Source: a virus
Reading direction: 5' to 3' (one strand)
Virus record (IMG/VR): IMGVR_UViG_3300025880_000012
Span: 1-64,000 of that record
Length of the DNA stretch: 64,000 bases
Positions within the stretch are counted from its first letter, which is position 1; each line of letters starts with the position of its first letter. The notes under the pieces were generated by a model. It was given only the letters and a program-made list of their open reading frames with translations. It did no database searches and was not told the DNA's origin. Positions 6,413-24,144 of the stretch are shown here, piece by piece. The translations under genes were made by a program, and so were the position numbers.

Positions 6413-9400
6413 ATGCCAAATGTAGAAGATAGTGATCAAAGTAAGGAAAATGCATTTTTCTTGGTCAAAGATGTTAGCAAAACACTTATTGGTGGAAAAG
6501 ATGCTGATGGAAATCCTCAAGCTTATTTCGATACATCGGATGTAGGAGTTATACAATCTACAGCCTTATTGCAAAAACTAAATAACTCTGAATTCGTATT
6601 GGGTAGCGAAGGGGAAGTTAATCAAACATGGTTTACATTTTTGCAGCAGGGATCAAAAGTTTACAGTATGGGAGGCAATTCTACCCCAAGTACAGTAACG
6701 ATAACATGGAATAATAGCTCAAACTTAGAATCGGATATTGAAAAATGTAGAGATTTAGAGGTTAATTGGGCCCAATCTGTTTTAGATCAATGGGATACTG
6801 TTGTAACTAGCCCCGGTCCCCCACCATTCTTTAAGCCAATCAATACTAATTTTGGGCAAAAAGTTTTTAATAGTGGGGAGGTGAAAAATGACTTATTATC
6901 AGCTGACCCCTCAATTTCTAGCATAACAAGTAAGGATACTTTGAAATCTTATCTTGAAGATATTATTTCTGGCGCCAACAATCATTCAGTTAAACCAGGC
7001 TCAAGAGGCAGATCCACCATTCCAATTGTTGAGTATTTTAAATTTTACAATTCATCTACTGGCGAAAAATTTGAAAACCCAGGTACTGTTGATGATTTAA
7101 TGACATTAATCAACTCAATTTATGGTAATACAGAATCAGAACAAATTCAAGCCCAAAGAGATAATTTAAGTAATTTTAGTAGTCTTGGAGAAGCTGTTTT
7201 AGCATTTCAGAATTCGACTGAATATTCAGTTGGGCCGTTTGTTCAGGGTGAAGAAAGAATTACTGGGTACCAAAATATTAACACAGAGGAAGCTGTCTCT
7301 GAGATACCAGAAGGTGAAGATATAGCTAATTTTACACCATTAACAGAGATTATTTCAATACTTGACAACTTTAAAAAACAATTTAGTAAATATACTGATT
7401 TAGGAGCTCCAGAACATTTGTTCTCTGGGGTAATGATTAATAATTATTTAATTGAAAACCAAACAATATCCGGTTTAGCTGATACCCCTTCAGGCAATAT
7501 CAGTGGCATGTTATTGGTGAGTGATGGTAGTGGTTTCGATTATGTTAGTCATACATTAACCGGCTTAAGCGATACTCCTACTGGGTATTTGTCAGGCTAT
7601 TATTTGCGTTCTCATGCTAGTGGGTTTGAATATATATCACCAGAAGATTTTGGTGAAAGTATTGACTACTTTACTGGATTAAGTGACACACCGAGCGGGT
7701 ATGTTAGTCATTCTGGTCATTATCTGATAGTAAATGACGGTGAAAGTGGTATACATTTTACAGGTATTGAAAAAATCGCACAAGATTTAACGAATCATGG
7801 TTTTGTTGGGGGCGAAGGGTCAAATCACTTTACAGGACTACAAGATACACCTAGCGATTATAATAGCGGTCACTATTTGCGATCCACTGACAATGGTATA
7901 GAGTATGCTGAACCATCTGAACTGGGGCAAGATATACTCACTAATACTACTGGGTTGGCTAGTGGATATTTACGTATTGATGATGACGGCACAGGTATCG
8001 TTATTGTTGACCGTGAAACTTTTAAAGACGAAATTGATCTACAAGCCGACTTTACAGGACTACAAGATACACCTAGCGATTATAGCGAAGGAGACTACCT
8101 TCGTTCAACCTCAAACGGACTAGAGTACGTTACTACTAGTGGTTTAGCTCAAGATATTGGTGATGAAATCGTTAACAATATAGTGACTGGAGATTTATTG
8201 GGATTCACGGGTCTAAATGATACACCTACAGGTTACGAAACAGGTAAATTTGTACGAGTAAATTCCGCTGGAGATGCGGTAGAGTATTCAGACATTTCGT
8301 TTTTAAACGATGTTATTGATGCACCCGAAAGTCAATTAGTTAGCGGATTTCTGCAGCTCGATAAAGACGGAAAATTAGTTTGGTCTCCAGCAACTACTGA
8401 TGGAGATGTTAGTTTTACCATTACTGGGGCGACACATTTTACTGGCCTACTGGATACACCAAATGCTTATGATAACGGTAAGTTTTTAGCATTTGATGCA
8501 TTTAAAAATCAAATCACAGGCGTGGAGTTAAAACTAGCATCAAGTTTTTACGGGCCTGCAGATGTGATTAACGACCCTAATGATTTAGCTAAGGTAGGAG
8601 ATAAAAAAATATTAGAATACCATAAAACTCAAGAACATGGGTATGAAATCAAATGGGTTGATCAAATTACTGAAATTACAACCTTTACTGGCCTTAACGA
8701 TACTCCAACAAATTACCAAGAAGGTAAATACTTACGTTCTACCGCAGACGGTTTAGAGTATGTTGATATCACAGGTTTAGCTGAAGAAGTATCCGCAGAG
8801 ATCGATTTTCCTGAAGGAGCGACTGGATTCACTGGGTTACATGATACACCAGCAGATTACCAAGAAGGTAAATACTTACGTTCTACCGCAGACGGTTTAG
8901 AGTATGTTGATATCACAGGTTTAGCTGAAGAAGTATCCGCAGAGATCGATTTTCCTGAAGGAGCGACTGGATTTACTGGGTTACATGATACACCAGCAGA
9001 TTACCAAGAAGGTAAATACTTACGTTCTACCGCAGACGGTTTAGAGTATGTTGATATTACAGGTTTAGCTGAAGAAGTATCCTCAGAGATCGATTTTCCT
9101 GAAGGAGCGACTGCATTCACTGGGTTACATGATACACCAGCAGATTACAAAAACTACGAAGATAGATATTTTGTCGTTTCTAGCGGTGATTCCTTAAGCT
9201 ATGAACAAGTTAAATTTTTAGAAAATGTTAAAGATGCTCCAAATGTCAATAACGTTCCTAGTGATGGTACAGGATACTTGCAATTAGTTCAAGAATCAAA
9301 CGAGTGGATTTTAAAATGGGCTCCAGGAACTATCGAGGGTGATATCACTCAAAACTTTCAGGGCACAGAATATTTTACAGGTTTAGAAGATACTCCAACA

Positions 9401-11302
9401 GATTATCAGGAGGGTAAATATTTACGTTCTACCGCAAACGGTTTAGAGTACATTGATATCACAGGTTTAGCTGAAGAGGTATCCTCAGAGATCGATTTTC
9501 CTGAAGGAGTAACTAGATTTACTGGGTTACATGATACACCCATCAACTATAATAATGGTGCTTATTTAAGGTCGACAACTAATGGTTTAGAGTATGCTGG
9601 AATTGAGCCCACTAAATATAACTCAATTAATGATTTGCCAGCTCAAGCCGCAAATCATGACGGAGAAGTGGTTAGAGTAGGTTGTGATTTATATTTATCT
9701 TGCGATGGTGTTTGGAAAAAGTTCAAACAAGAAACGAGTGAAGTTATTGACGACCCTAATGATATCTTTCCTGAATGTGTAGAAACGACAGCAGAAGCTT
9801 TACAGTATCAGCAATATTTTGATGAAGTTATGGCTGCAGGAAATAGTTCTAGTTTTATAGATGGTTTAAACGGAACTTCTGAAAATAGCGATTTAAAATC
9901 TGTTTGCTTATTTAAAAAAGATCTTTATAACTCTGTATCCTGGGGTCAGTCATCCTGGCAAACTAGAGGTTTCTCTAGTATGGGTAACTTTGGAATAGGA
10001 AAAGAGCACGATAGTAATTGTAGTCCTAAATTTAAAAAAGGTAGCGATCAATTGTTTTTTATAATTGATACTCGCATCAGCAGCAGCACTGTAGATACAA
10101 TGGATTTAATTGTGGGAAAAATTAATGATTCATTTCAATACGAGAAAGTGTGGAGTAAAAGAGTAAATAATGAGGGATATAATGGAGTTGCAGATATTAC
10201 TGATGATTTTAAGCATATTGTATATTCCCAAAATAGAGTCAGTTCAACTACTGTATACGATATACATGTATTGGATAACAACGAAACTACTGGCGGTTAC
10301 GAACAAAATAGACCGCCAATCACAATAGAGCTAGCTCAGTCTTTATACAATATAACCCCTTTAAATTCTAATTCAAATTTAGGTATCCTACCATTCAGAA
10401 TATCACAAGATGGAAAAAGAGTATTTGTTATGTTAGGTCATGGAACTGCTACCAACACTAGTTTAAGGTTATTTATTTTTGAATGGAATGGTACAGATTG
10501 GGTTTTGCCTTATGTAATGGATATGCCTACACCCAAAGATGGAGCTGTAACAATGATAACATCATGGATACACTCATTTCTTTTGAATGAAGATGAAAGT
10601 GTAATTTACTTAATTGGAGGCAGGATACAGACAAGTTCAAAATCTGGAGGAGTATTTAGAATAAATTATGAAAATGTATCTATCGGTCCACAAATAGGTC
10701 AAAACTTCTGGAACCATTCATCTAATGGCGTTATGTCAATGAATAATTTAGGTAATATTATTACATCTAGAGACGAGAATAGTTCAGATCCCAACTATAT
10801 ATGGAAGTATAATGAAAATTCTGGAATTTGGGATAGAATTGCAAGCATTAAATCGACATACCTAAGTATGTCTAGGAACGGAAAATTTTTCTTCGATAAA
10901 ACTGGTTTTACTGGAAAAGTTTATTACTATAATGAAAGCACAAACTCATTGATTCAAATAGCTCAAAATTTATCGACAAGTAATACTGGAAACAATGCTG
11001 CAATTTCTGATTCTGGGCAATCAATTGCTTATCCCAATAACACTGCAACTATTGCATTATCTCAAATTCCAGAAGTAGAAGGAGATATTTACAATAATTC
11101 TGTCGTTATTGAAGAGTCTAACTATAAGTGGGGACTTTTTGAAGGGAATACCAATATTAACCTTAGTGGCTCAATAGATACAAATTGTACATTTACTGAA
11201 TGGCAAACCTCTGACGTTAATCTAACTGACTCAAGTAACATTAATACCACCGCAAACATTAATAAAAGTGCATCCATTACAGGTGTATTTAATTGTGGAT
11301 AA
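6413..11302 (+). CDS. fibre/adhesin 1 (FTGLxDTP repeats, beta-propeller-like insert, C-terminal YKWG...ITGVFNC module)
   Basis: 1629 aa; many TGLxDTP repeats; modules shared with the six downstream genes. Confidence 0.75.
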   Translation: MPNVEDSDQSKENAFFLVKDVSKTLIGGKDADGNPQAYFDTSDVGVIQSTALLQKLNNSEFVLGSEGEVNQTWFTFLQQGSKVYSMGGNSTPSTVTITWNNSSNLESDIEKCRDLEVNWAQSVLDQWDTVVTSPGPPPFFKPINTNFGQKVFNSGEVKNDLLSADPSISSITSKDTLKSYLEDIISGANNHSVKPGSRGRSTIPIVEYFKFYNSSTGEKFENPGTVDDLMTLINSIYGNTESEQIQAQRDNLSNFSSLGEAVLAFQNSTEYSVGPFVQGEERITGYQNINTEEAVSEIPEGEDIANFTPLTEIISILDNFKKQFSKYTDLGAPEHLFSGVMINNYLIENQTISGLADTPSGNISGMLLVSDGSGFDYVSHTLTGLSDTPTGYLSGYYLRSHASGFEYISPEDFGESIDYFTGLSDTPSGYVSHSGHYLIVNDGESGIHFTGIEKIAQDLTNHGFVGGEGSNHFTGLQDTPSDYNSGHYLRSTDNGIEYAEPSELGQDILTNTTGLASGYLRIDDDGTGIVIVDRETFKDEIDLQADFTGLQDTPSDYSEGDYLRSTSNGLEYVTTSGLAQDIGDEIVNNIVTGDLLGFTGLNDTPTGYETGKFVRVNSAGDAVEYSDISFLNDVIDAPESQLVSGFLQLDKDGKLVWSPATTDGDVSFTITGATHFTGLLDTPNAYDNGKFLAFDAFKNQITGVELKLASSFYGPADVINDPNDLAKVGDKKILEYHKTQEHGYEIKWVDQITEITTFTGLNDTPTNYQEGKYLRSTADGLEYVDITGLAEEVSAEIDFPEGATGFTGLHDTPADYQEGKYLRSTADGLEYVDITGLAEEVSAEIDFPEGATGFTGLHDTPADYQEGKYLRSTADGLEYVDITGLAEEVSSEIDFPEGATAFTGLHDTPADYKNYEDRYFVVSSGDSLSYEQVKFLENVKDAPNVNNVPSDGTGYLQLVQESNEWILKWAPGTIEGDITQNFQGTEYFTGLEDTPTDYQEGKYLRSTANGLEYIDITGLAEEVSSEIDFPEGVTRFTGLHDTPINYNNGAYLRSTTNGLEYAGIEPTKYNSINDLPAQAANHDGEVVRVGCDLYLSCDGVWKKFKQETSEVIDDPNDIFPECVETTAEALQYQQYFDEVMAAGNSSSFIDGLNGTSENSDLKSVCLFKKDLYNSVSWGQSSWQTRGFSSMGNFGIGKEHDSNCSPKFKKGSDQLFFIIDTRISSSTVDTMDLIVGKINDSFQYEKVWSKRVNNEGYNGVADITDDFKHIVYSQNRVSSTTVYDIHVLDNNETTGGYEQNRPPITIELAQSLYNITPLNSNSNLGILPFRISQDGKRVFVMLGHGTATNTSLRLFIFEWNGTDWVLPYVMDMPTPKDGAVTMITSWIHSFLLNEDESVIYLIGGRIQTSSKSGGVFRINYENVSIGPQIGQNFWNHSSNGVMSMNNLGNIITSRDENSSDPNYIWKYNENSGIWDRIASIKSTYLSMSRNGKFFFDKTGFTGKVYYYNESTNSLIQIAQNLSTSNTGNNAAISDSGQSIAYPNNTATIALSQIPEVEGDIYNNSVVIEESNYKWGLFEGNTNINLSGSIDTNCTFTEWQTSDVNLTDSSNINTTANINKSASITGVFNCG
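8684..9545 (+). repeat. 144-bp (48 aa) tandem repeat x3 plus a dispersed 4th copy
   Basis: ttaccaagaaggtaaatacttacg at about 8713, 8857 and 9001; similar copy at about 9400. Confidence 0.9.
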
Positions 11303-11304
11303 TT

Positions 11305-13437
11305 ATGAGTAATAACTTACAGCATGTATTGAATCAAGCTTTCTCTGGAATGGGAGATGCTGTTAGAGCAAAACTATATATAACAGGTTTAAATGACACC
11401 CCAACAGGCTACCTTGGACACAGTGGCGATTACCTTGTAGTCAATGACGGTGAAACTGGCATACATTTCACAGGCATAGAAAAAATCGCGGCTGACCTTA
11501 CAGATTATGGATTTATAGGCGGAGATGGAATTACTGGATTTACTGGACTAAAAGATACTCCTACAGGTTACCAAGACCATAGTGGTGATTATCTTGTAGT
11601 AAACGACAACGAAAGCGGCATACATTTCACAGGTATCGAAAAGATCGCGGCTGATTTAGTAGATTATGGATTTGCTGGAGGTGGGGGGTCGACTAATTTT
11701 ACTGGGCTTCAAGACACTCCGAACAATTATAGTGATGGTAGTTATTTAAAATCCACAGCTAACGGTCTAGAGTATGCTGGAATTGTTCCCACTTCTTACT
11801 CAGATGTTTTGAGTTTGCCCAGCAATCCCAATCAGCACGAAGGAGAAGTTGTAAAAGTTGGGTGCGATATTTATCTATCCTGCAACGGAGAATGGCAAAA
11901 GTTAGATACATCAAGCCAAGACGACGTTCCATCATCTTATCCAGCCTGTGTTACCACGACTGAAGAAATGGTAGAGTATGATAAGTATGAGCAAGAAGTT
12001 TCAGATGAATTATCAGAACAAGAATTAATAAATAGCATTAATGGAATCGAAGCGAATACGGACATTAATAATGTTTGTTTATTCACAAAAGATATTTATG
12101 ACGATATTATTCTAGATGAAAATGCAACCTGGCAAAATAGGGGTGATATTGGCAATATTATTGAGCGGCGGTATTCATGGACTAGAGTAAGTGAGGATGG
12201 AACTAAATTTGCTCATGATAGCTCTATAGTTATTGGATCATCCTCATCGAAAAGAAAAACTTATCTATATTTCACCGTGTCAACCTTAAATAAACAAACT
12301 CAAACAATCACCAATAGTCAAACATTTAAAAATGCGAATAGCTTCATTTATATTACTCACAATTTTCAGTGGATTGTCGCAGTAAATTACATTAATGGTG
12401 AAGGAACAGCTTACGATGATACTGGAGGCTTAGACCCACATAGAATTGAAATTCATAAACTAAATACTGCATCCAATATTTATGAATTGCATGAAATTTT
12501 TGATACACCCGAATCACTAAATATAGATTGGATCGGAAGTGACGAGGCCATAATTTCAGAAGACGGTAATCAACTCTTAATTGCTTCGACCGCTTTAGGT
12601 TTAAACAAATTGTACAACTTCGTAAGAAATGGAAATTCATGGGAGCATCTCAATACATTTAGTATACCCGCTATCCCTTCGATAAGACAAATCAATAAAG
12701 ATTTAACTAAAATAGCTATTTATTCGAACAACACAAAGTTATTTGGATTATATAATATTAATTATGAAACTAGTGTTTTAGAAAATATTATAAGTTTGAC
12801 CACTCCTACTGACGGGAGAAAAGACTTAGTTAATGAAAATTTCGACACAGTTCTTCAAACCAAGCACCACGCCGGAAGTGTTTATTGGTATTCTGTATAT
12901 AAATATGATGAAACAAGTAATAGTTTTAAGATAACTAACACTGGAAACCCAAGCGTAGTAGATAAAGACGGGATTAATGCTATTCATCCTACTTATCTTG
13001 ACCTAAATCAAAATAGTATGTCTGAAGATGGAAACATAATAACTCTACCTGGAGTAGGTGTTTACTATTATAATAGCTCAAACGATACTTGGAATTTAAT
13101 GGGGAATAATATTAATACCAATATAAATTTAATGAGCTCAGATGGATCAATTATAGGAACCGAGGATGGTATTGTTAGAGAGATTTACTTTACTCAAGTT
13201 CCTCGCACAAACACTAGCCTTTATAACAATTCAGTACACATTGAAGAATCAACGTACAAGTGGGGGATTTTTAATGGTGACCAGTCGATTAATATCACAG
13301 CATCAGAAAGTGCTGGTTGCACGTTCAGCGAGTGGACAACTGCTGATATTTCTATACTTGGAAACATTAACAGCAATCAAACAACGGCATTAATAAGTCA
13401 AGATACATCAATAACAGGTGTATTTAACTGCGGATAA
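11305..13437 (+). CDS. fibre/adhesin 2 (beta-propeller-like insert; start ATG 11305)
   Basis: Two copies of the DTPTGY..HSGDYLVVND cassette; repeated SEDG/SSDG propeller-like motifs. Confidence 0.75.
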   Translation: MSNNLQHVLNQAFSGMGDAVRAKLYITGLNDTPTGYLGHSGDYLVVNDGETGIHFTGIEKIAADLTDYGFIGGDGITGFTGLKDTPTGYQDHSGDYLVVNDNESGIHFTGIEKIAADLVDYGFAGGGGSTNFTGLQDTPNNYSDGSYLKSTANGLEYAGIVPTSYSDVLSLPSNPNQHEGEVVKVGCDIYLSCNGEWQKLDTSSQDDVPSSYPACVTTTEEMVEYDKYEQEVSDELSEQELINSINGIEANTDINNVCLFTKDIYDDIILDENATWQNRGDIGNIIERRYSWTRVSEDGTKFAHDSSIVIGSSSSKRKTYLYFTVSTLNKQTQTITNSQTFKNANSFIYITHNFQWIVAVNYINGEGTAYDDTGGLDPHRIEIHKLNTASNIYELHEIFDTPESLNIDWIGSDEAIISEDGNQLLIASTALGLNKLYNFVRNGNSWEHLNTFSIPAIPSIRQINKDLTKIAIYSNNTKLFGLYNINYETSVLENIISLTTPTDGRKDLVNENFDTVLQTKHHAGSVYWYSVYKYDETSNSFKITNTGNPSVVDKDGINAIHPTYLDLNQNSMSEDGNIITLPGVGVYYYNSSNDTWNLMGNNINTNINLMSSDGSIIGTEDGIVREIYFTQVPRTNTSLYNNSVHIEESTYKWGIFNGDQSINITASESAGCTFSEWTTADISILGNINSNQTTALISQDTSITGVFNCG

Positions 13438-13439
13438 TT

Positions 13440-15584
13440 ATGAGTATACAAGATAGGTTAAACTCAGCTAAGTTGATTGGGCAAACAATTGACCAAAGAT
13501 TATATATTACTGGCTTACACGACACCCCAACAGGCTATCTCGGCCACAGCGGAGATTATCTCGTAGTAAACGATGGTGAAAGCGGCGTACATTTCACAGG
13601 TATCGAAAAGATCGCGGCTGATTTAGTAGATTATGGATTTACTGGAGAAAGCTCAACGATACCGAGTTACACAGATCTTCCAGATGTCACAGAAAACGAT
13701 GGTAAAATAGTAGCCTCTGGATGCGATCTTTATCATTCATGCAATGGAACATGGAATAAAATCGGTGGTGAATCGATACCTCCACCAGCCGAAGCTCCAG
13801 GATGTGTAACGAATCTCGAAGAATATAACCAATACCAAGAGTACAAAGATGATTTTTTAGCGGATAATCTAGGTAACACATTTGATCAAATGTTAAACTC
13901 GAATAATGATATTAGCAATCTAATCTTTGATGTCTGTTTGTTTCCTGAATCAAACCTAGAGAACGAAAGAAATACGGTAGTTATTGATGAAACTACTTAC
14001 AAGTGGGGAATGTTTGCGGGCCCGCAAACAATAAACCTTTCTGCAGAGGGATATTCTGACGGTCAAGGAAACGATTGTGTATTTAGCGAGTGGACGAGTA
14101 GCAATGCAAATTTTGGAGATTCTAGTAGTGCGAATACTACTGTTTTTGTGGATACTGATTTGTCGATCACTGGAAGTTTTGAGTGTTTGATTGCTCCTAG
14201 TCAACCAAGTTGTGATCGAGTAGTTTTACACCTTCAACCAACTGCTGGAGAAACTATCACCGACAAGAGTAGCGACGAACATGCGATCACTGTGGTTGGC
14301 GATACAACAGTAGACAACACCAAAACATTGTTTGGTGAAGACACAATGCATTTTGATGGTAATGGAGATGGAGTGAGTGTTGGTGACACAAGCACATTCA
14401 AATTTTTACATGACGCTAGCACCGATTACACAGTTGAGTGTTGGGTAAATTTCTCAACACTCTCAGCCCTGGTTAATCCAATAATCGGAACTGCAGGGAA
14501 TAGCCATACAACTGGATTTAGCATTTATTATGCTGGTAGCAACAACGACAACAATGAATGGAGAGCGTTAATATGGAGAGGAAGTCAAGATGTACCAGTT
14601 GCTCGTGTAGATATTTCGGATGTACCAGAAACAAACAGATGGTATCATGTGGCTGCAGTACACACGAACAACACATTGTATTTTTATATTGATGGTGTTT
14701 TGGGTGGCTCAAGTTCTGGAGTAAATTATTCTAGCAACGATTGTTGGAGAGAATTGAGGGTGGGTAGCGCTGAAGCTGAAGCAGGTGATAATCGATATTC
14801 AGACTGCCAAATCCAAGACGTGCGCATCAGCAAAAAAGCAGTTTACACTGGCAACTTCACCCCGCCAACAAATTTGCTCGCTAACCTTTGCCCCGAACAA
14901 CCAAGTTGTGAAGATGTAGCTTTACATCTTCAACCTGACACAGGAGAAACTATCACTGATAAGAGTGGTAACGAGCATGTGATCACAACTGTTGGTGATA
15001 CAGTTGTAGACGACACTACCACACTATTTGGTGGCGACACAATCAATTTTGATGGTAACGGAGATTATTTGACGGTCAATCAAACCAGCACATTGAACCT
15101 GGGTGGTAATTTCACCATGGAAGGTTGGTTTTATATAAAAGATCAATGGGGTGTAAACGGTGTGAATTGCTTGGTATCACAATGGACTGACAATAGTGAA
15201 TGCGGTACAAATTGGTCATTAAATATCAGGCAGTCCACAAAGAACTTGGAGTTTGCTAGAAAAACAACTAGTTGTACATCAGGTGTAGTGTTGACCGGTG
15301 GATTTGAATACAACACGTGGACTCATGTGGCTGTGGTTGGCGAAACAACCGAGAACACCATCAAGATGTATGTGAACGGCGGGCAAGCACAACAGTCAAT
15401 AACAGACAAAGACACCCGGAGCGAAAATTTAACATATCCAATATACATAGGAACCAGAAAATTTGCGAACAATGGTGACCCAATGGACTTCGCTGGCCAT
15501 ATTCAAGACTTTCGTATCAGCAAACATGTGGTATACACAAGCAACTTCACCCCGCCAACAAATTTGTTAAACAACCCCTGTTAA
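13440..15584 (+). CDS. fibre/adhesin 3 with two C-terminal LamG/ConA-like domains
   Basis: FDGNGD, YTVECWV/FTMEGWF, WYHVAAV, IQDVRISK..VYTGNFTPP duplicated. Confidence 0.8.
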   Translation: MSIQDRLNSAKLIGQTIDQRLYITGLHDTPTGYLGHSGDYLVVNDGESGVHFTGIEKIAADLVDYGFTGESSTIPSYTDLPDVTENDGKIVASGCDLYHSCNGTWNKIGGESIPPPAEAPGCVTNLEEYNQYQEYKDDFLADNLGNTFDQMLNSNNDISNLIFDVCLFPESNLENERNTVVIDETTYKWGMFAGPQTINLSAEGYSDGQGNDCVFSEWTSSNANFGDSSSANTTVFVDTDLSITGSFECLIAPSQPSCDRVVLHLQPTAGETITDKSSDEHAITVVGDTTVDNTKTLFGEDTMHFDGNGDGVSVGDTSTFKFLHDASTDYTVECWVNFSTLSALVNPIIGTAGNSHTTGFSIYYAGSNNDNNEWRALIWRGSQDVPVARVDISDVPETNRWYHVAAVHTNNTLYFYIDGVLGGSSSGVNYSSNDCWRELRVGSAEAEAGDNRYSDCQIQDVRISKKAVYTGNFTPPTNLLANLCPEQPSCEDVALHLQPDTGETITDKSGNEHVITTVGDTVVDDTTTLFGGDTINFDGNGDYLTVNQTSTLNLGGNFTMEGWFYIKDQWGVNGVNCLVSQWTDNSECGTNWSLNIRQSTKNLEFARKTTSCTSGVVLTGGFEYNTWTHVAVVGETTENTIKMYVNGGQAQQSITDKDTRSENLTYPIYIGTRKFANNGDPMDFAGHIQDFRISKHVVYTSNFTPPTNLLNNPC

Positions 15585-15585
15585 A

Positions 15586-15599
15586 GTGTAATAAATATC
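15586..15599 (+). promoter_or_regulatory. GTGTA putative late promoter
   Basis: 14 nt before ATG 15600. Confidence 0.6.
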
Positions 15600-17582
15600 A
15601 TGTCAGAATCAACACAAAAAATGCTATCAGGAATAGCTGAGATGGCTAGATCGATACAAACTTATGTACCAACAGGGCTTTTTCAATTAAAAGACACCCC
15701 AACAGGCTACCAAGGACACAGTGGCGATTACCTTGTAGTCAATGACGGTGAAACTGGCATACATTTCACAGGTATCGAAAAGATAGCGGCTGACCTTACA
15801 GATTATGGATTTGGTGGTACCACTTTAAATATACCAAAATATACCACCTTGCCAGACCCAATAACTAACGATGGTAAAATTGTAGCTAGTAGTTGTGATT
15901 TATATTATTCTTGTGATGGTGAGTGGGAAAAAATAATTCAGTTTAGTGAAGATGTCATACCAGAAACATATCCAGTGTGCGTAAAAACACAATTAGAAAT
16001 GATAGAGTACGATGCCTACAAGGACGAAATAGCAAACCAGCAAATGGAGTCGGCATTTGTCGACTCTCTTAATGGAGAAAGTAACAGTTTGGAGGTAAGA
16101 AATGTATGTTTACTCAAAAAAGAACCCACTAGCTCTATAAGTATCAACCCAGACGAAGCTTGGAATGAGATTGCGTCATTTGAGATATCGAGGGCTCCAG
16201 TTGTGATGAATTATCAAAAAAATACATATATAATAAATGATGCTAAAGATAAATTCTTAATTCCATGGCTAAGAGTTCCAACTACTGATCAATATTCTGT
16301 AAGAATTGTCAATGAACAGGGAGAAACACTTTTTAATTTTTCTGGCTTTGGGCGTTATACTTTTGTTTCTATAACTTCTGACTTTAAATATATAGCTCAT
16401 ATGACAGAGATATCTAGCCAGAATAACGACAAAGAAATTAATTTATATAAATTCAATGAATCAAATAATTCATATGAATCCTATGGAAAAATAGAGCACA
16501 GTGTATTTACTGGCAATAGAGATGGATTTAGAATTAGTGAAAATGGTCAAAAAATAGCTTGCAGTGGATCCGGAAAAATTGGAATTTTTGAGGAAAATGG
16601 TGGTAACTGGGAACTTGTAAATGAAATGACATTTTCCCCCCATCTTCGTACAACTTCAAACATACCTCATATTTCATATAGTCCAGATTTAAGTAAATTT
16701 GTAATCGAAGCAAATATATTAGATACAGGTTCTGAGTATATGGAATTTGGGGGACTTAAATTCTATGAGATTGACTATGTTAATAATATAGTTAGTAAAT
16801 ATATGCAGATAGAATGGGATTCTAATGATTCAGTTACATCTTGGGTACTTAATGATAATTTCGACACTTTAGTTGTTATGAGAACTATTCCAGGCCAAGG
16901 GTCAACTCATCAGTTGGCGGACTATATATCTGTATACAAATATATTCAATCATCTAATTCTTGGGTGATAACCAATCAATCAAACTCTAACAGTTTATTT
17001 CAAGGTGTAGCAGGCAAACATACGATAAATTCTGAACCCCTTGCAATTACTGAGTATGCTTTATCCCCTAATGGAGATTTTATTGTTTTAAGTCTTGGAG
17101 AGTATGAAGACACTAGCTCGAGCTATAATGTACCTCAGGACGGCGAAACTATAACTTATTACTACGATAAAGATATTGACCAATGGATACAGTATGGTAT
17201 TGATCCAATTATTGGGTCTGCATCTCCATTAGCTATATCTAATGATGGATCTACCATAGTTAGTTCAAATCAAAAATATAATATCTCGAAGCAAGCACTA
17301 TATAGGTATTTTTTTATTAATAAAATGTTTTTTGATGAAAGCTCTTTGACATCGTTTAGTAGTAAGAGTTATAATAATAGTATTTTCATTGAAGAATCTA
17401 CATACAAATGGGGAATTTTTCTACCTGAAACGACAATTAATTTAAATGGCTCCATTGACCCAGATTGCTCATTTATTCAATGGCAATCTAGTGATGCTGT
17501 AATTAATCAACCCAATACGTTTAACACATCAGTTATTATCAATAACGATTCCTCAATTACAGGTGTATTTAATTGTACATAA
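15600..17582 (+). CDS. fibre/adhesin 4 (beta-propeller-like insert)
   Basis: Shared cassette; ISENG/LSPNG/ISNDG motifs. Confidence 0.75.
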   Translation: MSESTQKMLSGIAEMARSIQTYVPTGLFQLKDTPTGYQGHSGDYLVVNDGETGIHFTGIEKIAADLTDYGFGGTTLNIPKYTTLPDPITNDGKIVASSCDLYYSCDGEWEKIIQFSEDVIPETYPVCVKTQLEMIEYDAYKDEIANQQMESAFVDSLNGESNSLEVRNVCLLKKEPTSSISINPDEAWNEIASFEISRAPVVMNYQKNTYIINDAKDKFLIPWLRVPTTDQYSVRIVNEQGETLFNFSGFGRYTFVSITSDFKYIAHMTEISSQNNDKEINLYKFNESNNSYESYGKIEHSVFTGNRDGFRISENGQKIACSGSGKIGIFEENGGNWELVNEMTFSPHLRTTSNIPHISYSPDLSKFVIEANILDTGSEYMEFGGLKFYEIDYVNNIVSKYMQIEWDSNDSVTSWVLNDNFDTLVVMRTIPGQGSTHQLADYISVYKYIQSSNSWVITNQSNSNSLFQGVAGKHTINSEPLAITEYALSPNGDFIVLSLGEYEDTSSSYNVPQDGETITYYYDKDIDQWIQYGIDPIIGSASPLAISNDGSTIVSSNQKYNISKQALYRYFFINKMFFDESSLTSFSSKSYNNSIFIEESTYKWGIFLPETTINLNGSIDPDCSFIQWQSSDAVINQPNTFNTSVIINNDSSITGVFNCT

Positions 17583-17584
17583 TA

Positions 17585-19015
17585 ATGAGTTACGACAAAG
17601 TTCAATTTATCTATAATGCATTCCAAAAAATGGGTGCAGCCATATCGACAAAACTTAACATAACTGGTTTAAACGATACCCCAACAGGCTACCAAGGACA
17701 CAGTGGAGATTACCTCATAGTTAACGATAACGAAAGCGGCATACATTTCACAGGTATCGAAAAAATCGCGGCTGATCTAACAGATTATGGATTTGGTGGA
17801 GGAAGTTCAACCATACCGAGTTACACAGATCTTCCAGATGTCACAGAAAACGATGGTAAAATTGTAGCTAGGGGTTGTGATTTATATTATAGTTGCGATG
17901 GCGAATGGAAAAAGATTGGTGCAGATTCTATACCTCCCCCAGAAGACGTACCAGGTTGCATAAGTAACCTTGAAGAATACAATGAATATCAAGAATATAA
18001 AGAGCGATTTTTGGCAGATAATATGGGGAGTGCTGCGGAATCTATTTTAAACAATGGAACAAAACTTTCTGATCTAGTCTTAGATGTATGCTTATTCCCA
18101 GAATCAAACCTAGAAAATGAAAAAAACACCGTAGTCATTGATGAAACCGAATACAAGTGGGGAATATTTGAGAGTCCGCAAACGATAAACCTTTCTGCAG
18201 TAGGATATTCTGATCAAATAGTTAGTTGTGTATTTAGAGAGTGGACGAGTAGCAATGTTACTTTTGAAGATTCTACCAGCGCAAATACTTCTGTTTTTGT
18301 GGATACAGATTCGTCAATCACTGGAAGTTTTGACTGTTTCTTTCCTCCTGGTCAACCGAGTTGTTCTGAAATTTTATTTCACCTTCAATCAAACAACGAT
18401 CAACCAATAGATAAATCAACACATCAAAGACCTATAGAAAATGCAAATAATGTCGTGTCATCTAACGATCAACAATTATTCGGAGGGTCAACTTTTGATT
18501 TTACTTCAGCGCAAGGAGCAATCGTAACTGAATTAGTTGACATATCATCTCCTGAAATAAATGGGTTTGAAGCTATAACCACTGAGGTTTGGATAAACTT
18601 AAATGATTTAGGTTTAAATCAGGGCTCGAGTCAAACCGTTTTTGAATTTGCTGGAATAGATCGATTAAGAATAAATGGCTCCACAAACAATCCGCGTCCG
18701 ATAGGGTCTTTATTTTGGGAAAGAGGAAACAAATCTCATTTCTTTCCTGCCGATATTTCACCTTTAAATATCAACCAATGGTATCATATTGCGGTTGTAT
18801 ATACTAAAAGCAATCAAACCCTTAAAGTCTATTTAGATGGAATACAAATTGCACTAATTGAACCTATAAGCTTTTTACTTCTTGATGGACATTGGAGAGT
18901 TGGTGGGCCTAGTGGATTCATAAAAGGATACTTGCAAGATTTTAGAGTTTCAAAGAAAGAAGTCTATACAAGCAACTTTACCCCACCAAATAGTTTATTA
19001 AGTAACCCCTGTTAA
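17585..19015 (+). CDS. fibre/adhesin 5 with one LamG-like domain (start ATG 17585)
   Basis: Shared cassette; WYHIAVVY, LQDFRVSK..YTSNFTPP. Confidence 0.78.
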   Translation: MSYDKVQFIYNAFQKMGAAISTKLNITGLNDTPTGYQGHSGDYLIVNDNESGIHFTGIEKIAADLTDYGFGGGSSTIPSYTDLPDVTENDGKIVARGCDLYYSCDGEWKKIGADSIPPPEDVPGCISNLEEYNEYQEYKERFLADNMGSAAESILNNGTKLSDLVLDVCLFPESNLENEKNTVVIDETEYKWGIFESPQTINLSAVGYSDQIVSCVFREWTSSNVTFEDSTSANTSVFVDTDSSITGSFDCFFPPGQPSCSEILFHLQSNNDQPIDKSTHQRPIENANNVVSSNDQQLFGGSTFDFTSAQGAIVTELVDISSPEINGFEAITTEVWINLNDLGLNQGSSQTVFEFAGIDRLRINGSTNNPRPIGSLFWERGNKSHFFPADISPLNINQWYHIAVVYTKSNQTLKVYLDGIQIALIEPISFLLLDGHWRVGGPSGFIKGYLQDFRVSKKEVYTSNFTPPNSLLSNPC

Positions 19016-19016
19016 A

Positions 19017-19030
19017 GTGTAATAAATATT
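19017..19030 (+). promoter_or_regulatory. GTGTA putative late promoter
   Basis: 14 nt before ATG 19031. Confidence 0.6.
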
Positions 19031-20488
19031 ATGTCATCAGCCAAACAAAGCTTATCAGGAATCGAAGATCTACTTTTCGCAGTAAAAGATTATGTGCCAA
19101 CAGGACTTTTTGAATTAAAAGATACCCCAACAGGCTACCTTGGACACAGTGGCGATTACCTTGTAGTCAATGACGGTGAAACTGGCATACATTTTACGGG
19201 TGTCGCAAAAATTGCTCAAGATCTTACAGATTATGGATTTGGTGGAGATGGAGGAAGTTCAACCATACCAAGCTACACAGACCTTCCAGATGTCACGGAA
19301 AACGATGGTAAAATAGTAGCATCTGGTTGTAATTTATATTATGCTTGCGAAGGAGAATGGAAGAAGGTGGGTGCAGATACTACAGCCCCTCCAGAGAACA
19401 TTGAAATACCTGATTGCATTTCAAATTTAGAAGAGTATAATCAATATCAAGATTATGTAGATAATGTAATAAATAGTAATATTGATATAGCTTTTGATAT
19501 TGGGTTTAGGAATTTAACTGTAGATAATTTTTTTAATAATGTTTGTCTTTTTGGAAACAATTTAAATGTGCCTGAAAATTTAAATTTAATTACTCAAGCA
19601 CCAAGCAGTACTCAAGCACCAAGCAGTACTCAAGCACCAAGCAGTACTCAAGCACCAAGCAGTAATGCTAACCACATAAATAATAAATACCCAGAAGCTG
19701 GTTCTTACGATGTTCTTTGGACAGGTGGAAGCATTAACAATAGTGCCGCTATATCTTATAACAGTTCATTGCCAACTATTACACATGGCACAGATAATCA
19801 AGGTAACAGCAACAATACGGTTGTTTTTTGGCAAAAAGCTGGGGGGCATATGGGGTGGGTTTTACCTGAACAATATACTTATGTAAAGACTGGGCAAAAG
19901 TTTCAAATATCAATGTGGGGCGGTGCAGATCGTGCAAGTGGCTCAAGGTGGTCAAAAGTTGGTCACTCATCGCATCCTTCATCATGGACAACTGATTACA
20001 TTTCAAGTGTGTCTTCCAATCAATCGGGGGAAATCACCATTGAGTATTCTTTTAATAAACTTGTAAATAGTTCAGCTCCGACATGGCATTACAATAATCT
20101 ATTGCTAGTAGCTGTATTTAATTATGGAACCGAGTACGCTTCGTGGTATAAACTAAGTTTTGGTACGTACCTTAATCAAAACCTATTGATTAACATGAGC
20201 GAGACAGCAGTTTTAGATCAACCTGTTTTTAATTCGCCTGCGAACACCCCAATACTCGCACCCGGCGAAACTTTGGGGTCAGTGCGAGTAACTGAATCAA
20301 ATTACAAGTGGGCATTAGTACCAAAAGATAACCCTACAGTAAACATACAGGCGGATCCAGGTAGGTGTCAGTTTGTTGGTTGGCAGACAAGCGATAATTC
20401 TATACTAGGTAATCCAAATGATGCATCCACAACCGCTTTAATTAACCAAGACACATCAATAACGGGTGTGTTTGATTGTACACCATAA
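19031..20488 (+). CDS. fibre/adhesin 6 (distinct insert)
   Basis: Shared cassette and C-terminal YKW...ITGVFDC module. Confidence 0.75.
   Translation: MSSAKQSLSGIEDLLFAVKDYVPTGLFELKDTPTGYLGHSGDYLVVNDGETGIHFTGVAKIAQDLTDYGFGGDGGSSTIPSYTDLPDVTENDGKIVASGCNLYYACEGEWKKVGADTTAPPENIEIPDCISNLEEYNQYQDYVDNVINSNIDIAFDIGFRNLTVDNFFNNVCLFGNNLNVPENLNLITQAPSSTQAPSSTQAPSSTQAPSSNANHINNKYPEAGSYDVLWTGGSINNSAAISYNSSLPTITHGTDNQGNSNNTVVFWQKAGGHMGWVLPEQYTYVKTGQKFQISMWGGADRASGSRWSKVGHSSHPSSWTTDYISSVSSNQSGEITIEYSFNKLVNSSAPTWHYNNLLLVAVFNYGTEYASWYKLSFGTYLNQNLLINMSETAVLDQPVFNSPANTPILAPGETLGSVRVTESNYKWALVPKDNPTVNIQADPGRCQFVGWQTSDNSILGNPNDASTTALINQDTSITGVFDCTP
19592..19663 (+). repeat. 18-bp tandem repeat x4 (TQAPSS)
   Basis: actcaagcaccaagcagt repeated perfectly. 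Confidence 0.95.
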
Positions 20489-23400
20489 TGAATAAGGCAA
20501 ACGATTTTCTGAACGGGATCAAGGGTATAGGTAAATATATCTCTGATAGATACTACTTAACTTTACTGAAGGACACCCCAACAGGCTACCAAGGTCACAG
20601 TGGAGATTACCTTGTAGTCAATGACGGTGAAACTGGCATACATTTTACTGGTATCGAAAAGATCGCAAGTGATCTTACAGATTATGGATTTCTTGATGGA
20701 GTTGGTGGTGGCGGCGGCGGAGGCGGATCTAATTCTTTTGGGATAATTGCGTCCAAAATGGACGGAATAAATTTTACAGGTGAACTGCCAGACATCATTT
20801 TTCAAAAAGATGAGAATGGCCTAGAGGCTGCTTTAATATTACATAATGTAAACAAAACTTTAAATAAAATACAATATGCAGCCAATACCGCAGGTACCAA
20901 TCGTATACTTCGTTTTGATAACTCAGCAACTGCGGGAAACATGACGAACAACGGAACTTGGACTCTAGGCAGCAATTCTCCTGGACCAGTTTCGGTTCAA
21001 CATTTTATTGATACGGATAAAGCGGCCTATCTGGGCGGCGGCGGTTCTTCAAGCTCTGGAGGTGGTTTTCAATCCAATCAAATCACCAAAGATAATTTCG
21101 CTGGAGACTTTGCATTACCAGATGCTCTATATGTGCCATTAATCAGAGCTGGTGAGCTACATTTACGACCATTTTATTTTAATGGTTTCTATGGTACTAC
21201 TGAAAATGCTTTTGCTTACATTCAGTATGAATGGATTATTGGACTGAATGAGAGATTTACGATTAATTTCTCGAACAATACCCATGGTGGTTTTGCCAAT
21301 ACCACAAATTTTGAATCAACCACCACAACATTCAATTTATCAACCATTCCATCCACAACAACTAACCAGCCAAGCATAAAAGAATTCATAGCCGATGATA
21401 GAGCTTTGTATTTTGGTGGCGGAGGCGGTTCAAGCAGCTCGACAACTTTTAACTCTCTGACAGATACCCCAACAGGATATCAAAGTGGATATTATTTACA
21501 AAGCGCCGAATCTGGCGTTGATTATGTATCAATTAGTGGGTTAGCTCAAGATCTTACAGATTATGGATTTCTTGATGGAGTTGGTGGCGGTGGTTCAAGT
21601 TCAACCATAAGTACCATCAATCAAATCCAAGATAACATAGATAACATACCACTTATTGGTAGCGGAGTGCAGATACCAGATGCAATTTTAGTAAAAGACG
21701 TAAATGCAACAACTATCAACGGGTATGACAATTTAATTCAGCTGGATTATCATGGTTGGTCACAAGGCTACGACGCTAATGGAAATAAAACTAGTGATAA
21801 TCAACATTTTTGGTATGAAACAAACAATAGTGTTGGCACAAGATGGTATATACGATTTGATCTTGTGGATGGATCTTACGAGCAACATAGCGAGGACCAA
21901 CGCGTCAAAAAAGAATACGGTTCAATACAAGAATACATATCCGGCGGCAGAGCTTTGTATTTTGGCGGAGGCGGAAGTAGCTCTACTGCTGGTGGAGGTT
22001 TTATTCATGCAGTATTCAATGGAAATGCTAATATTGTATCAAAATCAAGCGACTGGGATACTCATGTGAATAGTATTACATTTCCACAAGGTGGAACTTT
22101 CAATGGCTATGCTCGCATAAATTATAAAAATGCATTCACATCTTTGCCTAATGTGCAAGTAACTGCAGATCATATAGACTCAGCTACCATTCCTCATGTT
22201 TTTGGACAAGTCCAGGCTCAGCAATTAGATAGATGCGATATCGTTATTGGAGATTCCGATAATACACAAGCACAAGCGGGATTTTCCGTGACTATTTTCA
22301 GCGACGAAATAGCTGGCGGTGCAGGCGGAAGCACCACACCTCAATTTTCTAGAGCTAAAGTTTCATCAAGTTCAAGCATTAGTCATTTCGATGCATATGT
22401 CGATTTAGACGCTAACCAATTAGCAACTGATTCTCAAAATTGGATAAGCACACATGCAACTCTAAACACAGTCGGAATATTAGTACCAGAGGATGGTTTG
22501 TATGATATATCATTTAATATACGTCCAGTAGAATATAATAATACTAACTGGATGAATAATGTAAGCTTGCTTGGTACAAAATTACGAATCGTTAAGGCTG
22601 ACGGTACCAATGTATTGGTGCAAGAAACTACAGACTCGAAAAATACAGGCAATGGAACAACATTAAATAATCATTTATATCTTGACAATTTATCTCTGGA
22701 TCAAGGTGATTTTCTTTGTTTGAGTTGTAGAGTATACTCTAGCAATACAAGTCTGTCATGGGCAGTGGATGATAGGTTTAGCTTTTTATCTGTGTCAAAG
22801 TCTGTAGAGGGAGGCGGCGGTGGAGGCACAACAAACACTCAAGAATTAACCGAACAAATCTCTCAAACTATAGTCAATGACAATTTAATTGTATTAGACA
22901 CAGATTATTCATTTCAAACTAAATATTTAAATGGATCTATTTCTTCTGATAGTAATATTACAGATTTGGAATTTACAAATTTAACAATTGGAGATACTTA
23001 TCGATTGAGTTCTACGGTGTCTATTAATAGTGATGGTACTGCGGGCGATAAAATTAAAGTAAATTATTATCATGATGGAAATAAAATCGCCGCAGTTTAT
23101 AGCGATAATATTAGCCAATCAGTAAGTACGTCTGTGTTGTTTAATGCTACAAGTAATAGCTTATTAGTTTCTGGACAAAATTTAGATGCCAATAATTATA
23201 TAGAAGGAAATCCAAACGAAATAACTTTCACTCAGATAGAAAAAATTAGTAATAACATGGTCGCGCCAGAGATTATTGCTATCACCGATGGATCAACTCA
23301 AACATTTGATGGTGCCACAATGGCTGATAACAATTACATCAAAATAGAAGGCGAAAATGTTTCAGCTACTATAGAAATTGACGGAGATTCATTTGTTGTT

Positions 23401-24144
23401 GCTCAAAGTGGAGATCAAATGGTTTGGGATCAAGGAGGAACTGGAGAGACCGCTTTAAGCTTGGGAGACTCTATTAATGTAACACTTTCCAATGGTAGAG
23501 TTATAGAAATTAAATTCTATAGATCGGGCTCTTTATACTTTGCAATTAATAAAAAATCTGAGCCAGCAATCTCACAATGTATATCATCACCCGTTACAAT
23601 AACAGTCGAATCTGAATATGATAGTGAAACAAGTACTAGCACTTTTAATTATATAACTAGTGATTCAAGCGGTAATGGTGGTTTATTTGGATGCATTGAT
23701 GTTAATCGCGGAGAAACATTAACGATATTTGTTACCGGTGATGAACCAAACCTCTTATCTCATCCGCTTAAGATAACTAATTATAACGACTTAGGTCAAG
23801 CTATGGCTCCACTCTCTGGAGTAGTAAAAACAGATTTAACTGAGGGTACATATGAAGATCATACATACTCCTTAACATGGCAAGTGCCTTGCGATGAAGC
23901 AATTGACAAGTATCAATATCAGTGCGAAAATCATGCAGGTATGCGCGGTACTATCAATGTGTTAGGAGTATGCCCATCTCCCACTCCAACTCCAACAGCA
24001 ACAGTTACCCCGACACCAAGCATAACACCAACTATAACACCAACTATAACACCAACCCCTAGTGTTAGTGCAGGTTCTACGGGGGATTACTTTGACACAT
24101 TTAATTCAAATGAAGAAATGTTTTTACCGATTACTTTAGAATAA
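20488..24144 (+). CDS. fibre/adhesin 7, multi-domain (poly-Gly-linked modules, C1q-like and cupredoxin-like domains, PT linker; start ATG 20488)
   Basis: Shared N-terminal cassette; VPEDGLYDISF; SHP...YQCENHAGMRG. Confidence 0.72.
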   Translation: MNKANDFLNGIKGIGKYISDRYYLTLLKDTPTGYQGHSGDYLVVNDGETGIHFTGIEKIASDLTDYGFLDGVGGGGGGGGSNSFGIIASKMDGINFTGELPDIIFQKDENGLEAALILHNVNKTLNKIQYAANTAGTNRILRFDNSATAGNMTNNGTWTLGSNSPGPVSVQHFIDTDKAAYLGGGGSSSSGGGFQSNQITKDNFAGDFALPDALYVPLIRAGELHLRPFYFNGFYGTTENAFAYIQYEWIIGLNERFTINFSNNTHGGFANTTNFESTTTTFNLSTIPSTTTNQPSIKEFIADDRALYFGGGGGSSSSTTFNSLTDTPTGYQSGYYLQSAESGVDYVSISGLAQDLTDYGFLDGVGGGGSSSTISTINQIQDNIDNIPLIGSGVQIPDAILVKDVNATTINGYDNLIQLDYHGWSQGYDANGNKTSDNQHFWYETNNSVGTRWYIRFDLVDGSYEQHSEDQRVKKEYGSIQEYISGGRALYFGGGGSSSTAGGGFIHAVFNGNANIVSKSSDWDTHVNSITFPQGGTFNGYARINYKNAFTSLPNVQVTADHIDSATIPHVFGQVQAQQLDRCDIVIGDSDNTQAQAGFSVTIFSDEIAGGAGGSTTPQFSRAKVSSSSSISHFDAYVDLDANQLATDSQNWISTHATLNTVGILVPEDGLYDISFNIRPVEYNNTNWMNNVSLLGTKLRIVKADGTNVLVQETTDSKNTGNGTTLNNHLYLDNLSLDQGDFLCLSCRVYSSNTSLSWAVDDRFSFLSVSKSVEGGGGGGTTNTQELTEQISQTIVNDNLIVLDTDYSFQTKYLNGSISSDSNITDLEFTNLTIGDTYRLSSTVSINSDGTAGDKIKVNYYHDGNKIAAVYSDNISQSVSTSVLFNATSNSLLVSGQNLDANNYIEGNPNEITFTQIEKISNNMVAPEIIAITDGSTQTFDGATMADNNYIKIEGENVSATIEIDGDSFVVAQSGDQMVWDQGGTGETALSLGDSINVTLSNGRVIEIKFYRSGSLYFAINKKSEPAISQCISSPVTITVESEYDSETSTSTFNYITSDSSGNGGLFGCIDVNRGETLTIFVTGDEPNLLSHPLKITNYNDLGQAMAPLSGVVKTDLTEGTYEDHTYSLTWQVPCDEAIDKYQYQCENHAGMRGTINVLGVCPSPTPTPTATVTPTPSITPTITPTITPTPSVSAGSTGDYFDTFNSNEEMFLPITLE

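Follow-up and report, generated by a model that had tools for sequence, protein, structure and literature searches.

Seven co-oriented open reading frames (ORFs) on the plus strand, g1 to g7, nearly abut one another across positions 6413-24144 of the viral DNA analysed here, the first 64 kb (64,000 nt, hereafter the window) of the 76.9-kb linear IMG/VR virus record IMGVR_UViG_3300025880_000012, for which CheckV completeness is ~54%. The encoded proteins are probably tail fibres or receptor-binding proteins (RBPs), and the genes share a 48-aa segment, the cassette, which is encoded by 144 nt and present in eight copies among the seven genes. We read the array, at a probability of roughly three in four, as a host-recognition island of modular, paralogous virion fibre genes whose variable domains (payloads) would be exchanged by recombination at the cassettes and linkers. 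The evidence comes above all from related genomes, in which the cassette DNA and the adjacent Gly-rich linker are the sites of payload exchange, deletion and re-joining. An earlier note on this DNA, made from its letters without database searches, had proposed that the cassettes act as homology arms for such shuffling, and the comparison supports this: arrays of relatives differ on near-identical backbones, with breakpoints at cassette edges or in the adjoining Gly-rich linker.

Cassettes and Gly-rich linkers are sites of payload exchange in related genomes

A cassette-profile search yielded 34 related loci, from marine and estuarine metagenomes; an IMG/VR protein-pattern scan with g4 alone returned no relatives. 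Among these relatives, synteny and conservation hold for the genes on either side of the array but not for the array itself. The 70-kb contig L023 is 100% identical to the window in the large terminase (TerL), 99% in the portal and 99% in the nuclease-like gene at the amino acid level, yet its array has five genes rather than seven, with nothing that corresponds to the g2 payload, g4 or g5. At the DNA level (the prefix w denotes window coordinates), L023 matches the window at 98% identity over w8972-11514, shows little or no similarity for ~3.8 kb, and matches again at 95% from w19116. A mismatch map resolves the first boundary: the 300 nt that lead to the first base of the first g2 cassette (g2a) are 100% identical, identity is ~88% within that cassette, and there is none past 11514, where L023 continues with block 2 (a module that follows the cassette, described below) of the type found in g3 and g5. 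The second boundary, 19116, is the start of the g6 cassette. Both boundaries would fit the pattern left by a cassette-to-cassette double crossover. The g7 gene of L023 lacks w21428-22810 and carries ~545 nt inserted at w21041, and module ends of the form ...ALYFGGGG are repeated in g7 of the window at 21376-21425 and 21925-21974; thus g7 gains and loses modules at Gly runs.

A second rearrangement joins two genes of the array. In L012, L022 and L014, the leader and cassette of g5 (93-96% identical) are fused at w17813 to g7 from w22829 onwards (91-92%), the junction lying in a Gly/Ser linker with GGTGGAGG-type microhomology. Members of this 372-aa chimera, exact or at least 90% identical, occur on many JGI and ENA contigs, so that the search for chimeric junctions that the earlier note had proposed returned one that recurs in independent assemblies. 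L022 also keeps the unit from 15693 (start of the g4 cassette) to 17813 (end of the g5 cassette) at 89% identity between unrelated neighbours. Of the window itself, the g1, g3, g4 and g5 sequences were seen again on 3-5 contigs with lengths of up to 100.7 kb, and near-identical g2 variants, members of the same 90% cluster, were found on contigs of 38-101 kb.

When breakpoints were counted across all relatives from high-scoring segment pairs (HSPs) of at least 88% identity, 7 of 19 distinct breakpoints lay within 15 nt of a cassette, as against 7.9% expected (binomial P = 4e-4). Junctions that coincide with the conserved blocks are at 7670, 11385-11514, 13495-13509, 15693, 17813, 19116 and 20691, and most of the breakpoints away from the cassettes fall in the Gly linkers of g7, at the end of the B-repeat-like domain of g3 (see below) or in the tandem repeats of g1. 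Exchanged modules are often 91-98% identical where the backbone of the same relative is 79-84% identical, which indicates recent transfer. Mosaicism is likewise evident in the proteins: residues 781-1218 of g7 are 86% identical to protein P0063 while the N-termini are merely 43% identical, the LamG domain of g5 has an 84% identical counterpart at the end of a g1-like protein, and residues 29-400 of g6 are 80% identical to a two-cassette protein.

The variation extends upstream of g1. The 250-aa gene that directly precedes it is 46-90% identical in relatives and co-varies with the g1 N-terminal domain, while the genes at 4234-5340, just upstream of this gene, are 94-100% identical; therefore, the variable island begins at 5659. 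The 250-aa protein may be a partner or adaptor of g1, and we only infer that it belongs to the array system.

Cassette conservation and the repeat family to which it belongs

The cassette follows the consensus D-T-P-T-G-Y-x-G-H-S-G-D-Y-L-V-V-N-D ... I-E-K-I-A-x-D-L-T-D-Y-G-F, with 27 of its 48 columns invariant. All eight copies that the earlier note had reported in the seven genes were recovered (Table 1), and the whole 77-kb record contains no strong copy beyond them. Their DNA is less uniform than the near-identity, synonymous sites included, that had been described: pairwise nucleotide identity is 74-85% within g2-g7 and 65-71% for the g1 copy. When codon usage in the window itself sets the expectation, most pairs of g2-g7 cassettes have identical synonymous codons in excess of chance (z 3-5.9), while the g1 cassette is at chance with respect to all others (z -1.0 to 0.7). 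The shared modules that flank the cassettes (block 2, Cys-linker and B-repeat-like domain) are 45-66% identical in nucleotides in most pairs, with synonymous codons at about chance; the exceptions are the g3/g5 pair, which has the appearance of a recent duplication, and the block 2 copies of g3, g5 and g6. For g2a and g4, identical codons amount to 36/41 in the cassette versus 4/14, 10/18 and 16/27 in the flanks. What was found is therefore an array that varies among relatives, with cassettes in g2-g7 that keep synonymous similarity between saturated flanks, and not the fixed array with saturated cassettes that the earlier note had set against shuffling.

The paralogous cassettes form a patchwork of exact tracts of 41-71 nt (run-length permutation P 2e-4 to 5e-3), the longest shared by g2a and g6 and the next by g2a and g4 (Table 1), followed by 53 nt in both g4/g6 and g2b/g3 (g2b being the second g2 cassette) and by others of 41-44 nt. 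The g6 gene is itself a mosaic, its leader resembling that of g4, its cassette those of g2a and g4, and its block 2 that of g5. The g1 cassette retains 32-37 of 48 residues despite saturated synonymous sites, and therefore purifying selection at the protein level, beyond recombination alone, maintains the cassette.

Two features had escaped the earlier note, namely three further modules common to g1-g6 (described below) and the membership of the cassette in a family of tandem repeats. The cassette is one version, and a specially conserved one, of a ~48-aa repeat (F-T-G-L-x-D-T-P-x-x-Y-x-x-G-x-Y-L ... G-L-E-Y), of which g1 has ~14 tandem copies with a 144-nt period and g2 and g7 have degenerate copies. 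When 1.84 billion proteins were searched with a profile of the eight cassettes, 627 representative proteins matched at E <= 1e-3, many of them with 5-25 repeats, and in ~40 representative clusters (80-1229 aa) a full cassette stands at residues ~25-75 together with differing payloads. Pfam holds no family for the repeat, the Colicin_E5 and Rhomboid matches on repeat-rich proteins having been rejected as spurious, and no PDB sequence matched when the cassette profile, g1, g5 or a repeat-rich homologue served as the query. PHROG 11660, annotated as tail protein, matches g5 (E 3.5e-4) as well as g2 (Table 1); the repeat also occurs in PHROG 18179 (virion structural protein, head and packaging) and PHROG 17462, and the repeat-rich homologues collected with the cassette profile match PHROG 11660 and 18179 at E 1e-41 to 1e-132. 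Distant similarity by tblastn (27-30% identical) connects the repeat type with tail and tail-fibre proteins of phiCbK-like Caulobacter phages, examples of proteins of PHROG 11660/18179. A g1 allele, P0163 (1533 aa), is identical at both ends and lacks exactly 96 aa, two of three near-identical 48-aa repeats, the missing part belonging to window 8684-9202 (g1 residues ~755-900); the difference may be true copy-number variation or assembly collapse.

Shared scaffold, payload domains and genomic setting

Three modules follow the cassette or repeats in g1-g6. Block 2 has the pattern L-P ... D-G-x-I-V ... G-C-D-L-Y-x-S-C-x-G-x-W; its core, which had been noted before as a second near-identical element in three genes, was found in g3, g5 and g6 (Table 1), with diverged versions in g1, g2 and g4. 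A Cys-flanked linker (P-x-C ... V-C-L-F) comes next, and the third module is a ~65-aa domain ending in I-T-G-V-F-N-C, called B-repeat-like after a weak match of the g2 C-terminus to Flg_new_2 (InlB B-repeat, PF18998) at 18.2 bits with a cut-off of 23.6. In g1, g2, g4 and g6, the payload sits between linker and B-repeat-like domain; in g3 and g5 the scaffold has no insert and LamG follows the B-repeat-like domain. Block 2, Cys-linker and B-repeat are all absent from g7. The ATGs given as likely starts of g2, g5 and g7 (11305, 17585 and 20488) match database homologues.

The payloads had been described as unrelated propellers, LamG, C1q-like and cupredoxin-like domains. LamG stands for g3 and g5, where PF13385 scores above its cut-off (Table 1). 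The g4 payload has no Pfam match, and its putative propeller is a lead from the ESM Atlas's own model (pLDDT, predicted local distance difference test, 0.54), which resembles FG-GAP_2 proteins at a TM (template modelling) score of 0.56-0.69. The g1, g2 and g4 proteins align over their whole length at ~30% identity, and their payloads are therefore homologous, so that the claim of unrelatedness does not extend to these three. No C1q-like domain was recovered in g6, whose payload has no Pfam match at E <= 1, the fold of g6 not having been searched; between scaffold and payload, g6 has four tandem TQAPSS units (19595-19666, residues ~189-212). The cupredoxin assignment of g7 comes from a weak plastocyanin/azurin match at its C-terminus (23578-24141; PF00127, 14.4 bits with a cut-off of 21.2, E 0.052) in which only a C-x2-H-x2-M loop aligns, with a Pro/Thr-rich tail after the loop. 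Residues 506-609 of g7 give a weak H-type lectin match (E 0.012).

In an AlphaFold2 (AF2) model of g5 (mean pLDDT 73), an N-terminal helix (residues 3-23), a small beta unit for block 2 and a long linker helix precede a confident all-beta domain (166-252, pLDDT ~90) and the LamG jelly roll, and fold searches with this model recover only the jelly roll, with matches that include phage structural proteins. The N-terminus of g1 has no Pfam or PHROG family; the AF2 model of its residues 1-350 has a mean pLDDT of 58 and no PDB match above Z 4, and an ESM Atlas feature search with this part scored below 0.8.

The genome is that of a tailed phage with siphovirus-like tail genes, as judged from large terminase and minor tail protein matches; GC content is ~34%, no tRNAs were found, and PhoH is encoded. 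Minor tail proteins resembling gpK, gpL and gpM lie on the minus strand alongside the 2486-aa J-like ORF of Table 1, in which ~1900 aa without a family separate the phrog_32 and phrog_31 parts. Amid the fibre-like genes of the tail module, a 798-aa protein (39589-41985, minus strand) has a glucosyltransferase match (phrog_2835), and upstream of the array there is a weak sulfotransferase-like gene (3668-4219, plus strand); the two hint at modification of virion or host-surface glycans. A 232-aa protein (25129-25827) with a weak match to RNA polymerase sigma factors (phrog_1740, E 2e-5) lies between array and terminase, and an ERCC4/HNH-like nuclease gene is at 26860-27792. A promoter and terminator scan gave the same result as shuffled sequences. 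No cultured relative emerged: tblastn gave no match to g4 among 50,697 phage records, and TerL is at most 25% identical to that of any cultured phage. GTDB representative bacterial genomes contain no close cassette, just two 50% partial matches, and therefore provide no clue to a host or prophage.

Table 1. Coordinates of the array genes, their cassettes and other features in the window
Feature	Position	Strand	Remarks
g1, 1629 aa	6413..11302	+	Probable long "trunk" fibre; unique N-terminal domain (~aa 1-340), ~14 tandem 48-aa repeats including one strict cassette, block 2, Cys-linker, propeller-like payload, C-terminal B-repeat-like domain
g2, 710 aa	11305..13437	+	phrog_11660 E 6.7e-7; Flg_new_2 below cut-off; leader helix, two cassettes, one generic repeat, block 2, Cys-linker, propeller-like payload, B-repeat-like C-terminus
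g3, 714 aa	13440..15584	+	PF13385 (LamG) 125.1 bits, E 3.5e-36, cut-off 27.6; leader, cassette, block 2, Cys-linker, B-repeat-like domain, two LamG domains at end
g4, 660 aa	15600..17582	+	Leader, cassette, block 2, Cys-linker, putative FG-GAP-like propeller payload (aa 173-597), B-repeat-like C-terminus
g5, 476 aa	17585..19015	+	Pfam LamG (39.3 bits, E 9.2e-10) and AF2 model; leader helix, cassette, block 2, linker helix, B-repeat-like beta domain, single LamG
g6, 485 aa	19031..20488	+	From module alignment: leader, cassette, block 2, payload without family, B-repeat-like C-terminus
g7, 1218 aa	20488..24144	+	Module chain: leader, cassette, small modules split by Gly runs, cupredoxin-like motif, Pro/Thr tail
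Cassette g1 (internal, aa 421-468)	7673..7816	+	Synonymous sites saturated with respect to all other copies
Cassette g2a	11383..11526	+	L023 crossover at 5' edge; similarity to L023 stops at 11514
Cassette g2b	11542..11685	+	Exact tracts of 53 nt with g3 copy and 35 nt with g5 copy
Cassette g3	13509..13652	+	
Cassette g4	15681..15824	+	With g2a: 36/41 identical synonymous codons, 59-nt exact tract
Cassette g5	17663..17806	+	Joined at 17813 to g7 position 22829 in L012, L022 and L014
Cassette g6	19109..19252	+	L023 similarity (95%) restarts at 19116; 71-nt exact tract with g2a
Cassette g7	20560..20703	+	
Degenerate cassette in g7	21457-21570	+	
Block 2 core IPSYTDLPDVTENDGKIVA (19 aa), g3	13659..13715	+	Further copies 17813-17869 (g5) and 19265-19321 (g6); 51-55/57 nt identical
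Gly-run linker in g7 (aa ~775-781)	22810..22829	+	Recurrent recombination junction in relatives
Conserved junction block: end of gene (ITGVFNC), stop codon, start of next gene	11239..11311	+	Recurs at 13374-13446, 17519-17591 and 20422-20494
250-aa gene directly upstream of g1	5659..6411	+	No family
Large terminase (TerL)	27779-29647		
2486-aa ORF	47361-54821	-	gpI-like N-terminus (phrog_32); lambda J-like C-terminal part (phrog_31)

Proposed mechanism, alternative explanations and known systems

In the arrangement that we propose, g1 would form a long fibre, with ~14 repeats behind an N-terminal domain not shared by the others, and in each of g2-g7 one or two cassettes would come after an initial helix of ~25 aa. 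The proteins of g1-g6 would present ligand-binding domains on a Cys-containing scaffold, either inserted into it (g1, g2, g4, g6) or appended to it (LamG in g3 and g5). The unit running from one cassette to the next behaves as the exchangeable module, and exchange would proceed by ordinary homologous or microhomology-mediated recombination through exact tracts of tens of nucleotides, the partners being paralogs or co-infecting relatives and no dedicated diversification machinery being involved. The cassette protein would be kept constant through a common assembly contact, which may be oligomerisation or docking to the virion or g1, so that any payload following it could be mounted. A docking role is plausible, since the N-terminal position of the cassette (~25-75) is fixed in ~40 clusters with different payloads and since the g1 copy is conserved in spite of its saturated synonymous sites; because the cassette belongs to a fibre-shaft repeat family, it could be a structural or oligomerisation unit instead. 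A more specific version, in which the cassette is a self-recognising connector and the N-terminal cassettes of g2-g7 dock on or co-fold with the cassette or repeats of g1, strikes us as rather doubtful.

Several observations weigh against the host-recognition reading or parts of it. The terms tail fibre, RBP and docking come from distant homology and architecture, and the array adjoins lysis-like and packaging genes while the tail module lies elsewhere on the other strand. In the AF2 monomer of g5 the cassette has a pLDDT of 35-49, with a helix at 56-67. At cassette edges, the end of an HSP may in some cases reflect nothing more than faster divergence of the leader or payload, and a permutation test of the pairwise homoplasy index (PHI) type on the eight 144-nt cassettes was not significant (p 0.08-0.14). 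Across genomes, orthologous cassettes are 95-100% identical, whereas the best paralogue match within a genome is 71-88%. Concerted evolution, or ongoing homogenisation within the genome, was rejected on this ground, paralogues never exceeding 88%; exchange is therefore episodic rather than continuous, and of the earlier proposal of shuffling or gene conversion the first part is supported and ongoing gene conversion is not. Finally, the relatives are contigs from short-read metagenomes, which can be mis-joined at repeats of 40-70 nt; that the main junctions recur across samples speaks against such errors there.

This last concern, if taken as a full explanation, would make the payload swaps products of an assembler joining strains or paralogs wrongly at the shared cassette and the g1 repeat-number difference a collapse. 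All relatives are indeed metagenome contigs, the paralogous exact tracts of 41-71 nt are similar in length to assembler k-mers, and a g1 allele short of two 144-nt repeats is a typical collapse product. We nevertheless hold this to be very unlikely, as the g5/g7 chimera is exact or at least 90% identical on many JGI and ENA contigs with loci from several samples, its junction lies in a linker rather than in a long exact repeat, ~3.8 kb without a window counterpart follow the L023 junction, and the window gene order recurs on 38-101 kb contigs. If the exchanges are real, they could be the work of a dedicated system, be it a diversity-generating retroelement (DGR), a shufflon-like inversion or a phage recombinase with the cassette as its specific site. 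With the record only ~54% complete such an enzyme could be encoded elsewhere, and the ERCC4/HNH-like gene mentioned above is a nuclease candidate within it. In agreement with the earlier note, which had seen no recombinase or reverse transcriptase, the 77-kb record gave no match to RVT_1, RecT or ERF; the observed variation replaces whole domains and is not of the targeted point-mutation kind; crossovers occur at varied points (5' edge of the cassette, 3' edge, Gly linkers) and not at a single site; and all genes and cassettes are direct repeats on one strand, which excludes inversion. DGR, shufflon and dedicated recombinase were accordingly rejected, and we regard such a system as highly improbable.

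Two further alternatives concern what the proteins do. It is possible, though we lean against it, that the cassette serves the fibre shaft only as a structural element, such as a repeat that initiates trimerisation, and that attachment is made by the variable ~25-aa N-terminal helix or by another protein. The repeat family is found in tandem (up to 25 copies) in the 627 representative proteins, with ~14 in g1; the strict cassette is internal and not N-terminal in g1 and its orthologues; and disorder of the cassette in the monomer model is expected for a fibre segment that depends on oligomerisation. Generic repeats vary widely, however, while the cassette keeps 27/48 residues invariant where other modules drop to 45-66% nucleotide identity, and this conservation together with the fixed distance from the N-terminus in ~40 clusters suggests a specific shared partner. 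That the proteins are other surface structures (head fibres or decoration proteins) or non-virion proteins, rather than tail RBPs, would agree with the place of the array between lysis-like genes and the terminase/head module, apart from the minus-strand tail genes, with the presence of other fibre-like genes after the J-like gene in the tail module, and with the head-and-packaging label of PHROG 18179, which has the same repeat. We consider it unlikely in view of the proteins annotated as tail or tail fibre that have the repeat in common, and of the lectin-like and propeller-like domains and the hypervariability between near-identical backbones, which are typical of host-recognition genes.

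The reading of the array as a host-recognition island places it beside known multi-RBP phages. In the Klebsiella phages of the KP32, Menlow and PhiK64-1 groups, in E. coli phage G7C and in the tailspike complexes of the Ackermannviridae, RBP genes are arranged in tandem and have a conserved N-terminal anchor or "conserved peptide", and the distal specificity domain is exchanged horizontally with the architecture unchanged (PMC6872550). The present array is alike in its clustered RBP-like genes, seven in tandem, and in combining a conserved N-terminal module (the cassette at residues ~25-75 of g2-g7) with an exchanged distal part. It differs in that a single 48-aa module, a copy of the fibre's own shaft repeat, is used and is also found inside the long g1; in that no T4 gp10-like branching domain was detected, the model of the g1 N-terminus being of low confidence (pLDDT 58); in payloads that are lectin-like or propeller-like domains and not depolymerases; and in belonging to a siphovirus-like, uncultured marine lineage without a cultured relative. 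The T-even gp37/gp38 adhesins and the tail-fibre mosaics of P2, Mu and lambda likewise have short conserved blocks that flank variable specificity segments and serve as crossover points, through which adhesin specificity is swapped from phage to phage. Here, by contrast, the conserved block is a whole 144-nt repeat unit that occurs once or twice per gene in a seven-gene array, and the cassette-to-cassette unit therefore comprises a payload plus the start of the next gene. In metaviromic islands, host-recognition genes are hypervariable in otherwise near-identical, co-occurring marine phages (PMC3909814), as they are between the window and L023, whose TerL proteins are 100% identical while their arrays differ; those islands were defined by under-recruitment of reads, whereas the present one is defined by contig comparison and has, in addition, a defined repeated joint. 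The principle is already established: the N-terminal module stays conserved while the distal domain is swapped, with recombination taking place at conserved motifs. What is specific here is a connector of 48 aa, derived from a shaft repeat, that is common to seven tandem genes and also lies inside g1, together with an unnamed repeat family and a lineage without a cultured member.

The array offers a clean example from nature of how host-recognition domains are re-assorted in an abundant, uncultured phage lineage of marine or estuarine waters, with an exchangeable unit that can be delimited to the nucleotide, and it defines a widespread fibre repeat (627 representative proteins) that has no Pfam family or solved structure. 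Were the cassette a self-recognising connector, each virion would carry a branched fibre with up to seven specificities mounted by a universal 48-aa plug, and the DNA of the plug would be the crossover site as well, so that structural compatibility and genetic exchangeability would reside in one element. If the cassette is a universal docking plug, it would offer a compact connector with which to study how many binding domains are mounted on one siphovirus, and the branched-RBP concept would reach beyond the enterobacterial phages.

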